Shown here piece by piece: positions 27,601-30,600 of a stretch of 64,000 bases of DNA (the first letter of the stretch is position 1; each line of letters opens with the position of its first letter). The stretch spans positions 12,090,001 through 12,154,000 of the forward strand of contig NC_135767.1 of the NCBI RefSeq assembly GCF_052425735.1, written 5' to 3'. Source of the DNA: Oculina patagonica (lineage: Eukaryota). The notes beneath the pieces were generated by a model, which was given only the letters and a program-made list of their open reading frames with translations, searched no databases and had not been told where the DNA came from. A program made the translations under genes and the position numbers.

Positions 27601-30600
27601 GTGTGCACTTCCTTATCCAAATCTGAGCCTTTCGTTCCTTGTAGCTTTTGCAGACACTCGTGAGCTTTCACAGCAACTTCGCGCGATCTCTGCTTTTGAT
27701 AGTGAACTTTTGCAAAGGCAGAACTGTGTTTTTGGTCTTCTGACAAAATTTGTTGCTCCGTGCTTGTGAGTAGATTGAGGCTTTGCGTTTCGACAATTTG
27801 ACGATAGCGCGTTGGATGAATATACTTCCCGATTGCATCGAACACCAATTTACTCATGACGTCGCCCAATTTGCTATGCTGGCCTCCGTTTCTAGTGACA
27901 AGTACGAAGTCGCACTGGGGTTTGAGTAATGGCCTTACGAAATTTATGTAGCTTTCCAGCACCCGCATGCTTGCATCAGTCAAAATTAATGAGTCAAATC
28001 CATACTTGCTGGCCGTTTTGAACTTTTTCTGGTCAATGAATCCTCCGTTCGCCTTAGCTGTTTTAACCATGTCCACCGTCAAGTACTGATAAGTCATAGG
28101 GCGAGATCCCTTCACCTTTTCAATACAAATTATCAATTTGGGAACAAATCGTTCCATTCACAGTTAAGAACTCGGAACAAAACGGTCCTAAATTATCAAT
28201 TTGGGAACAACGCGTCCCATTTACAGATAGGAACTCGGAACAAAACGGTCCTAAATTATCAATTTGGGAACAACGCGTCCCATTTACAGATAGGAACTCG
28301 GAACAAAGCAGTCCTAAATTATCAATTTGGGAACAATATGTTCCATCAACAGTTGGGAACTCGGAACGAAATGTTCCTGTTTTATCTTAGGGTGAACGTT
28401 TTGTTCCTAACTTTATAAAAAGCTGGTCCTCTTAAGGTTAACAGGAACACAAATATGAGGAACAAATTATATTAGAGGAACGTTCCTAAAGAAAAGATCG
28501 GAACATGCTACAAAACTTAAAATCAGTTAAAAACGGGCAAAGATATAAATTACAAGTCACAAAACAGTTAGTTGAGCGTTTAGGTAAAATGAAAGCAATC
28601 ATCGAAATTTGGTAAACTCTACCGCACTCAAAGGCTGTAAAACACGCAGTGAAAATTTTTGGGAAACGTTAAGGATGCAAGGAGAGAGAAGTATGGAGAG
28701 AAAAAGCATAAGGGAGGGAGAAGTGGGAAAGGAAGGAAGGAATAGGAAAGGAGGAGGGAAGCAGGAAAAAAGAAAAATAGATTAGATAAAATATGTGTAT
28801 TTACAGTCAAACACCATTAGCCTAATGTGAAGCTGTAATGGCAGCTTTAAGAAGACATCACTAGGAATTGTGGCCCTTTCCAAGACCTAGTCAATGAAAT
28901 AATCTTTCATTGACTAGGTTATTATGAATAATCATGTGCTGTCTGCTCTTGTCTGATTATCATATACTTACATTTATAGAAATCATCAAACAAGTCAACA
29001 TCTTTTAAAAGGTCCCTTACTTTGTCTAAAACCTGTTTCAACAAATGAAGATCATAATTAAAATTAAGTCCTTACAGAAAAAAAAATAGTTTATTAAATA
29101 AATGTTTTTAAAGTTTGATCTCTTTAAATCAAAATAAAATTATGATGCGAAATGGATTGAAAAAATTGAAGCAAATATATTAAACTTTAAGAATACATCT
29201 ACATTTTCCTGAAAATATAAAACCATTGCCTGGGGGTGGGGGGGGGGGGCACTCCCATAAATGAGCTATATCAATAGGTATGTGACGCTGTGAAGGGTAT
29301 GGTTTAGTCTGGGATAGGGTATAGAAATCAGCAAGTTTTGGTCTAGAATAGGGTACTATCATTTGCTAGAAAACCATTAAGTCTAGAATAGGAATAGAAT
29401 TTGGCAGAGGAAGAGGCCTTCTTAAACGTAAATAAAATCATCGCAGCAACATTGTTGACAGACAGAAAGTTTTCCATTAAAAACACAAATAGTGATACAG
29501 TTCTGAAAACGGCAAGTCTGGGATAGGATATTTTCTTGGAAGTAGACACAACTACGCCATAAGCAGAATATTATTTGTAGCAATCACTGTCAGATGCTAA
29601 TGCGCACGAGCAGACCATTATTTGTAGGCAGTTACATGTATTTGCAGATCACGTGGTGGGCTCTCAGCCAATGAAAAGGAAGAAAAAATTTCAAGAATGA
29701 TAAATTAAATTATGTAAACTGTAAATGTAATGCCTTACTGTTGCATCCTCAACAGCCTTAGCATTTGAATTCCAGATTTGAATGATGTCATCTCTCTCAC
29801 GCACACTAACACTTATGCCACATACTTCATCATCTGAAAAATTAAAATAATCATTAACTTTGATCTCTTTTGATCTCTTTTTTAATAATTTTCCTGCAAT
29901 ATTGCAAAATTTGTCACAAAAGAACATCCCATTTGACTGTGATATCGTGAAGTGAAATTCTTTATTTGTCCCAATAGAAGTCTTCTTCTGGGCACTTACT
30001 TCAAAGGGAGCATTTTAAGTGAAGGGGTGCTTATCATTTTCAGAGATAGATCCAGGAAACTCAGAAAGAGGGGGCTGAAGAAATGGGGCACATGGGCAAG
30101 TCCCTCACTCCCCCCCCCCCCACACCCTCCGCAAAAATAAAAAAACAAGGTATATTAAAAATTCACTTTGTGAAGACTCTGCTTTATTAACAGCATACTT
30201 ATTGCACAATTTACCACTTTAGACAGTTATCAAACATTTAATAAAAATGCAAAGGGGGGGGGGAGGAGCAGTGGCCTTCGTACATTAATTATGCATGCAA
30301 TTTTGTGACTGATTCGTTCTTTTCATGATTGCTGTTTGTGTATTGTGATAGTATGAAATAGTTGCATACATAATTAATGTATGGGGCTGTGTGGAATTCT
30401 TTCCTTGTGAATAACTGCCTCTACTGATGCCATCGACGTCGAATAGATAAACTTATGAACATTCACCGTACTGTACATGTATATATTACCGGTATATTAA
30501 CTGCAAAAAGGAACAATTCTTCAAAAAGTAAATGAAATTTCAAAACTTTGTTACTGTTACAGTTTCTGTTATTGTTAGTTATTTTAATATTTATTAAAGC

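Follow-up and report, generated by a model that had tools for sequence, protein, structure and literature searches.

Introduction

The locus described here raises the question whether two short motifs in coral DNA are the true ends of a mobile element, and by which kind of exchange such an element would leave the chromosome and enter it again. Crypton ends are hard to define and the mechanism of these elements is largely a proposal. One active member, CryptonF-1_cRei, gains copies despite clean excision, for which the relevant passages of the report (PMC9977147) give no explanation. In the window, i.e., the whole 64,000-nucleotide stretch of Oculina patagonica DNA that was analysed, a first-pass annotation had proposed a left and a right end and derived from them a loxP-like recombination site and a clean empty site. 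The element has definite ends, a constant layout and purine-tract targets, and an arm/8-bp/arm junction is present at a second locus.

Ends of the Element in the Window

The element extends from 21878 to 28675 (6.8 kb) and is one deleted copy. From left to right it consists of left arm, palindrome, helicase gene (plus strand), recombinase-like gene (minus strand), 63-bp repeats and right arm. These are the only two genes between the ends, with no reverse transcriptase or DDE transposase, and the proteins of the window are 98-99% identical to Oculina patagonica entries. The ratio of observed to expected CpG is 1.18 inside the element (21879-28668) and 0.87-0.92 outside.

The letters and positions given earlier for both motifs were exact: gg at 21871-72, AAGGAT at 21873-78 and CGTTTCC at 21879-85 on the left; GGAAACG at 28662-68, TT at 28669-70, AAGGAT at 28671-76 and gc at 28677-78 on the right. 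Accordingly, attL (21871-21885, plus strand) is composed of the 8-bp spacer GGAAGGAT (21871-78), the last base of which, T21878, is the first base of the element, followed by the left arm (21879-85). In attR (28662-28676, plus strand) the arm is followed by the spacer TTAAGGAT (28669-76), where T28669 belongs to the element and TAAGGA (28670-75) is the hexamer; T28676 is most likely a host base, its match to spacer position 8 being coincidental. The right arm closes a conserved subterminal region (28442-28668, plus strand) terminating in GGGAAACG, of which 28662-28668 is the core arm. Next to this region lies the subterminal 63-bp tandem repeat array (28127-28441), found also in both elements of the second locus.

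Both ends abut purine tracts. The left host flank (21795-21877, plus strand) is 93% purine and contains (GGAA)n, with the tandem repeat (GGAA)6 reported by TRF at 21828-21852, and its final bases form the target hexamer GAAGGA (21872-21877). The right host flank (28676-28780, plus strand) is 90% purine. Of 6296 80-nt windows, nine reach 90% purine or pyrimidine, and the two flanks account for seven of the nine, which makes flank composition a strong argument for the ends. Inverted arms are absent from the host flanks of the target. The first-pass annotation had warned that such motifs may occur by chance, and the warning was justified as far as geometry by itself is concerned: counting a 6-bp direct repeat, an 8-bp spacer and perfect 7-bp arms at a separation of 3-12 kb, 35 pairs with identical geometry were found across the window, a good number of them in poly-A/T. 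In 30 shuffled windows, 76.5 hits were counted on average over five geometries. The chance test on the window alone did not support the motif, as the geometry is not above chance. Nevertheless, the two motifs are almost certainly the true element ends, attL and attR, because the second locus displays the same end bases, the predicted junction geometry and a clean microsatellite empty site.

The surroundings of the element hold several other features. An exon of the eIF4E family (29691-30014, PF01652) lies 1 kb to the right of the element; its next exon was not located. Duplicated single-exon GPCR-like genes (3967-4986, 8502-8894 and 16797-17879) are part of larger segmental duplications, and three intronless paralogues of about 570-590 codons (44472-46178, 48017-49792 and 55446-57194) have, by eye, the look of beta-lactamases or serine hydrolases. 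Cytochrome P450-like exons, also recognized by eye, flank an 802-base N gap (59967-61097 and 63085-63777). A 204-bp satellite in 14 copies occupies 11383-14228, and MITE-like short palindromic repeats are found at 20913-21099, 30785-30964, 7496-7634 and 20004-20107.

A Second Locus with Tandem Elements

Genome contigs were scanned once, and 69 pattern matches yielded three confirmed loci, L001, L002 and L003. Ends are visible in one of the three only, L001 (19.2 kb), while no end homology was found in the other two (1.6-2.0 kb). L001 consists of animal-like DNA, with spliced genes, microsatellites and SINE-like repeats, in a bacterial metagenome-assembled genome (MAG); L002 and L003 likewise hold recombinase-family sequence. 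Host contamination is the probable source. The comparison of ends covers two loci, and L001 is a single contig of a MAG, of which the tandem joint could be an assembly product. For the proteins of L001, identity to the closest relatives is 94-96%.

L001 contains two related elements arranged head-to-tail in a (AGAGAAAG)n microsatellite, in the order microsatellite, element A, element B, microsatellite when read in the orientation of the window. Element A comprises palindromes with iterons, a helicase tail (a weak match, E 1.0), a recombinase gene that is of full length but has a single frameshift close to the start, then the 63-bp repeats and a right end. In element B there is a single palindrome, and of the helicase gene the 5′ portion is present, followed by the 63-bp repeats and a right end. 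The order of parts is thus identical in three differently deleted copies. In element B the helicase gene is interrupted by a tRNA-like unit of 249 bp, repeated 3.4 times in tandem and accompanied by an inverted part (L001 4059-4904). Two independent internal deletions, one in the window (28118-28127) and one in L001 (3785-3788), both terminate at the array of 63-bp repeats, possibly a hot spot for deletions.

The check proposed with the ends was to see where homology stops in other copies, and the three right and three left ends coincide. The right ends are 74-83% identical through GGGAAA(C/T)G-T and divergent beyond, the window end having 74% identity with each of the L001 ends over about 280 columns. 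The left ends share GA-T-CGTTTCC and have nothing in common upstream. The perfect 7-bp arms are correct for the window copy (7/7), and in the relatives the inverted arms are longer, matching at 14/15 positions in element A and 10/11 in element B.

The form claimed for the circle junction, inverted arms around an 8-bp spacer, is physically present in L001 as the joint between A and B, where the right arm, the spacer TATAGGAT and the left arm follow one another at 7289-7310; this is the one match to the predicted geometry across the three loci searched. The empty site was likewise borne out. In the window it would be one fused purine tract, and in L001 removal of the two elements leaves a perfect (AGAGAAAG)n microsatellite when the crossover is placed after spacer positions 4-7, but at none of the remaining five registers. 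Under the present model, the junction and empty-site sequences written down earlier were reproduced. A 4-bp target duplication in L001 was rejected, as it needs an extra AG slip and conflicts with the 8-bp internal spacer.

Spacer Hexamers and the Mode of Exchange

All spacers have the form T-hexamer-T, with a T after every right arm and a T before every left arm, and spacer positions 1 and 8 are the T's of the element. The five spacers are GGAAGGAT and TTAAGGAT in the window, AGAAAGAT and TAAGAGAG at the outer junctions of L001 and TATAGGAT at its internal joint. Their hexamers differ pairwise at 1-3 of six positions and have only the final GA in common. The 6-bp direct repeat AAGGAT is therefore not a feature of the family, as the L001 spacers differ from it: the terminal direct repeat is 6 bp in the window and 3 bp (AGA, positions 5-7) between the outer ends of L001. 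At 5% divergence, the probability that at least three of six bases have changed is 0.002. Strict homology of the loxP type fits poorly with hexamers that differ in this manner. The loxP-like designation of the site thus holds for its geometry of arms and 8-bp spacer, while the homology rule is probably not that of loxP.

In Tn916, heterologous overlap bases are likewise tolerated in the coupling sequences. For IntDOT, the partners must be identical at 2 bp next to one cleavage site and mismatches elsewhere are tolerated, as described in passages of PMC2034462. By analogy with these systems, the exchange looks IntDOT/Tn916-like rather than strictly homologous as in loxP.

The alternative that survives best accepts the same ends and assumes, in line with the classic Crypton model, a homology-dependent exchange over a short fixed core with a target match of 3-6 bp, the bases after the right-end T being family-specific. 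We consider it unlikely, though it has several observations on its side: AAGGAT is common to both window ends, positions 5-7 are AGA at either outer end of L001, right ends that are just 74-83% identical imply different families, and the target of the active CryptonF is described as a near-identical 5-bp sequence (in passages of PMC9977147). Hexamer positions 2-5 could, with five hexamers from two loci, be fixed family-specific bases instead of carried ones. However, the internal joint of L001 has GGA at positions 5-7, where both outer joints have AGA, and positions 2-5 vary beside an 11-bp arm block with one substitution. We retain the IntDOT/Tn916-like exchange for the life cycle given below.

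The Recombinase-Like Gene

The window copy retains a 3′ remnant of a recombinase-like gene on the minus strand (27309-28118), which covers codons 296-564 including a TRF-like Myb C-terminus and, along 269 aa, has 98% identity with a protein of 564 aa. The zinc finger and the rest of the N-terminal half (codons 1-295) have been lost. A search of the window with 120 homologues, which took in the far side of attL as well, gave no significant match to this half, and an integrase gene split across attL was rejected, as the missing half is not there. As the first half of its recombinase is lost, the window copy cannot make the whole enzyme and could be moved only with that of another copy.

In the remnant R301, K329, H396-x-x-R399, H426 and Y435 follow one another in the order of a tyrosine recombinase catalytic set. 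Among divergent homologues the conservation is 33/33 for R301, K329 and H426, 30/33 for R399 and 31/33 for Y435, while at position 396 H occurs in 13/33 and N in 10/33. This motif order is what suggests that the protein is a tyrosine recombinase. Profile matches are weak, namely Phage_int_SAM_1 (E 0.005, one of 26 proteins) and XerC/XerD (E 0.04, one of 33), together with a feature-level match to a cluster with 15% PF00589. Significant tyrosine-recombinase matches were not obtained in the Pfam, PHROGs, NCBIfam, PDB-sequence and hhalign tests, PHROGs returning unnamed families only, nor did lambda Int and Cre match when compared as single sequences. The structure model has a pLDDT of 40, and the fold search with it gave helical hairpins only. 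Plasmid records contained no relatives of the recombinase.

Two further domains frame this putative catalytic part. All 25 intact homologues that cover the N-terminal region have a C2H2 finger there, and the best PDB matches of the C-terminal Myb domain are TRF1 and TRF2 (E 2.6e-7). The Myb domain may be the part that picks purine repeats.

The Helicase Gene

The helicase gene (23209-27094, plus strand) has four exons (23209-23244, 24116-25452, 25637-25754 and 25841-27094) and encodes 914 aa; it is intact, with GT-AG introns and no internal stop. Intron 1 contains a 157-bp tandem repeat of 3.4 copies (23373-23905), in which CCGCCATTTT motifs recur; we take these to be a YY1-like consensus.

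The domain plan comprises a probable Rep/HUH-fold N-terminal domain, an SF3 helicase, a coiled coil and a PIP-like C-terminus. Residues 438, 480, 523 and 540, which we take to mark Walker A, Walker B, motif C and the arginine finger, lie within about 110 aa. In homologues, PF00519 (E1) and PF01057 (NS1) are matched with scores close to the cut-off or under it: Parvo_NS1 was above it in one of the four homologues scanned and E1 below it, with E 2e-5. The PIP-like tail, for which we assumed the pattern [ILM]xx[FY][FY], is present in 15 of 17 full-length homologues vs 12 of 304 background windows.

For exon 2, the structure model has a pLDDT of 71 and retrieves Rep/HUH-fold chains at Z 5-7.5, i.e., below Z 8 and in a range common for the tool. 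By our own count, Rep/HUH/OBD chains make up 15 of the 50 top rows and five of the top seven among the structural matches of the N-terminal domain, which include Helitron, circovirus Rep, nanovirus Rep, NS1 and SV40 LT, as well as SIRV1 ORF119, presumably a Rep too. Foldseek on the PDB gave no match at E ≤ 0.001, the helicase profile had no hits among PDB sequences, and relatives were absent from phage records. In BFVD, SF3 helicase, NS1 and Rep entries were retrieved with poor global TM-scores.

With the position inferred from the order of secondary structure, HUH in the central strand and YxxK in the next helix, the motifs of active HUH Reps (CRESS, Helitron, Replitron), are absent in 40 sequences. 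A rearranged active site is conceivable all the same, because Y105 (37/37), H123 (36/37) and K158-D159-H160 (39/39) are nearly invariant. In the second alternative, the N-terminal domain is an active, rearranged nicking nuclease, and replication of the rolling-circle or rolling-hairpin type starts from the palindrome as a hairpin or cruciform; the element could then be a capsid-less satellite, and its parent could be an unknown virus. The top structural matches are indeed active Reps, Helitron and NS1, and a hairpin could be extruded from near-perfect palindrome arms that enclose an imperfect AT-rich centre. The lack of both motifs at their inferred places and of any other long ORF between the arms speaks against this alternative, which we regard as quite unlikely. 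An N-terminal domain that binds DNA as part of an initiator, rather than nicking it, is the reading followed below.

The Palindrome and Its Iterons

Between the left arm and the helicase gene lies an 820-bp palindrome (21930-22749) with an AT-rich imperfect centre and 12 iterons, ACTTACAG or CTGTAAGT according to strand, six per strand. Its arms of 341 nt have 24 mismatches, only two of which fall in the inner 271 nt, and its fold has a z of -55. Twelve of the 14 copies of the iteron motif in the window are inside the palindrome. In L001, element A has seven iterons and element B two, and B has a homologous palindrome. Palindrome arms match more closely within an element than to those of the other element. 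An independent foldback insertion was rejected, as the homologous palindrome occupies the same place in L001 B.

Taken together, the Rep-like fold, the SF3 helicase, the PIP-like tail and the conserved palindrome suggest that the palindrome is a candidate replication origin with iterons, for which the helicase would be the initiator.

A few details of these repeats may be recorded. The iteron (window 21951-22728; L001 6740-6964 and 10850-11942) has the form of a 3′ splice acceptor when read on one strand and that of a 5′ splice donor when read on its complement, which may be coincidence. At the centre of the element B palindrome there is a perfect (TAC)22 (L001 6856-6923), where the window copy is AT-rich, and element A has at least three shorter tandem palindromes in place of a single long one (L001 10686-12170).

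Proposed Life Cycle

The presence of a recombinase-like gene, a virus-like helicase gene and a large palindrome leads us to propose that the element leaves the chromosome as a circle and possibly copies itself. The recombinase would cut within the two T's, leaving a 6-bp overlap, and excision would yield a circle with an arm/spacer/arm junction. The helicase would bind the ACTTACAG iterons, unwind the palindrome and recruit PCNA, and the circle would be amplified by helicase-driven replication before re-insertion. It would then re-integrate into purine-rich tracts, possibly selected by the TRF-like Myb domain, or at one end of a copy already in place. Integration would require just a GA match (2-3 bp) beside the left arm, leaving the target hexamer on the left side and the carried hexamer on the right, as in IntDOT/Tn916. 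The L001 tandem would have arisen when the circle of one element inserted itself at an end of the other element.

With regard to the whole mechanism, we think it reasonably likely that this is a microsatellite-targeting element of the Crypton type with its own replication module. A bolder version, offered tentatively and in our judgement somewhat short of an even chance, is that of a capsid-less self-replicating animal episome that combines an IntDOT/Tn916-style recombinase, Myb homing, a palindromic iteron origin and a PCNA-recruiting initiator of the LT/E1 type. A further long ORF, capsid gene or packaging ATPase was not found between the ends; all three copies are deleted, and for this reason a capsid-type gene may have been lost.

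According to a third alternative, which we find very unlikely, the helicase and the palindrome are cargo or nested insertions in a recombinase-only Crypton, with no role in movement. The recombinase has 660 relatives vs 17+76 for the helicase, numbers that come from searches in different length classes, and animal CryptonA/I are described as having a recombinase without C-terminal domain (in passages of PMC3212892). Outside these loci the two genes are weakly linked, with two informative contig-length matches among 92 helicase and 116 recombinase lengths. Against cargo stand the placement of palindrome and helicase in L001, unchanged in position and orientation although the helicase has only about 60% identity there, the greater likeness of palindrome arms within one element than between elements, and the intact helicase ORF. 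That the end motifs are chance look-alikes and the real ends lie elsewhere is hardly credible, for all the 35 pairs of the same geometry, as homology to two further right and two further left ends breaks at these very bases and the flanks supply seven of the nine purine-extreme 80-nt windows.

Comparison with Known Systems

The element probably belongs to CryptonV. This is a cnidarian, target-specific Crypton group with microsatellite insertion (Kapitonov & Jurka 2012, Repbase Rep 12:2034, cited in passages of PMC8869645). The likeness, drawn by description only, consists in the cnidarian host, the tyrosine-recombinase DNA transposon and the insertion in microsatellites, which here are purine repeats at both of two loci (window and L001); the CryptonV passages in the literature examined give no sequence features. 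Cryptons F/S/A/I have terminal direct repeats of 4-6 bp or none, and no inverted repeats, according to passages of PMC3212892 and PMC13465315. They are alike in recombinase-driven movement, a proposed circular intermediate, a short terminal target match and a clean empty site, and they differ from the coral element with its inverted arms of 7-15 bp, Myb domain, second gene and palindrome. The animal CryptonA/I are described without terminal repeats (passages of PMC3212892), as well as without the C-terminal domain. A coral transposon with the gene pair of helicase and recombinase was not found in any paper of the literature searched, which excludes Repbase Reports and subscription journals, and the passages of PMC11071296, PMC11131425, PMC4455052 and PMC5753468 contain no description of this element.

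Cre/loxP and Flp/FRT share the inverted arms and the asymmetric 8-bp spacer. The overlap of loxP is 6 bp. These systems need identical overlaps and two complete sites, whereas here the target is armless and the hexamers differ. Their arms are 11-13 bp and their spacers 6-8 bp (passages of PMC3212892). As a label, loxP thus describes the geometry correctly, but probably not the mechanism. Likeness to Tn916 and to CTnDOT/IntDOT lies in the short required identity beside one cleavage site, with the rest heterologous. It is a likeness by analogy: these are bacterial conjugative transposons, with a 7-bp overlap for IntDOT (passages of PMC2034462), and the coral element has no conjugation genes.

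Polyomavirus LT and papillomavirus E1 have SF3 behind an HUH-fold domain without nuclease motifs, and the helicase resembles them with its probable HUH-fold domain. The SV40 origin is palindromic with iterons. In the coral element, by contrast, there is no capsid gene, the gene is spliced and resides in an integrating element, and the E1 match is below the cut-off. The LT/E1 design is described as an inactivated HUH domain with an SF3 helicase in passages of PMC6668415. Polinton-like viruses and virophages combine a tyrosine recombinase with an SF3 helicase and encode capsids (passages of PMC4642659), and nimavirus recombinases show repeat-specific integration and a C2H2 finger (passages of PMC10871703). 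These have capsids or are 15-400 kb, in contrast to about 7-8 kb and two genes in the coral element. Phage satellites pair a recombinase with a replicative helicase.

The coral family offers what has been difficult to obtain for Cryptons, an explicit att-site with arms, 8-bp spacer and variable hexamer, together with a natural tandem junction, and its replication module could explain copy gain. Relatives are numerous, with 2001 clusters at E ≤ 0.001, and are uncharacterised proteins wherever named. If the bolder version is true, animals would have an equivalent of the phage satellites and integrative plasmids, and the replication module of polyoma and papilloma viruses would have a relative that is not a virus; a recombinase that works in animal cells, tolerates mismatched overlaps and homes to simple repeats would, if true, be of interest for genome engineering. 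Set beside CryptonV by description only, the coral element is best called a kind of Crypton with a replication module.
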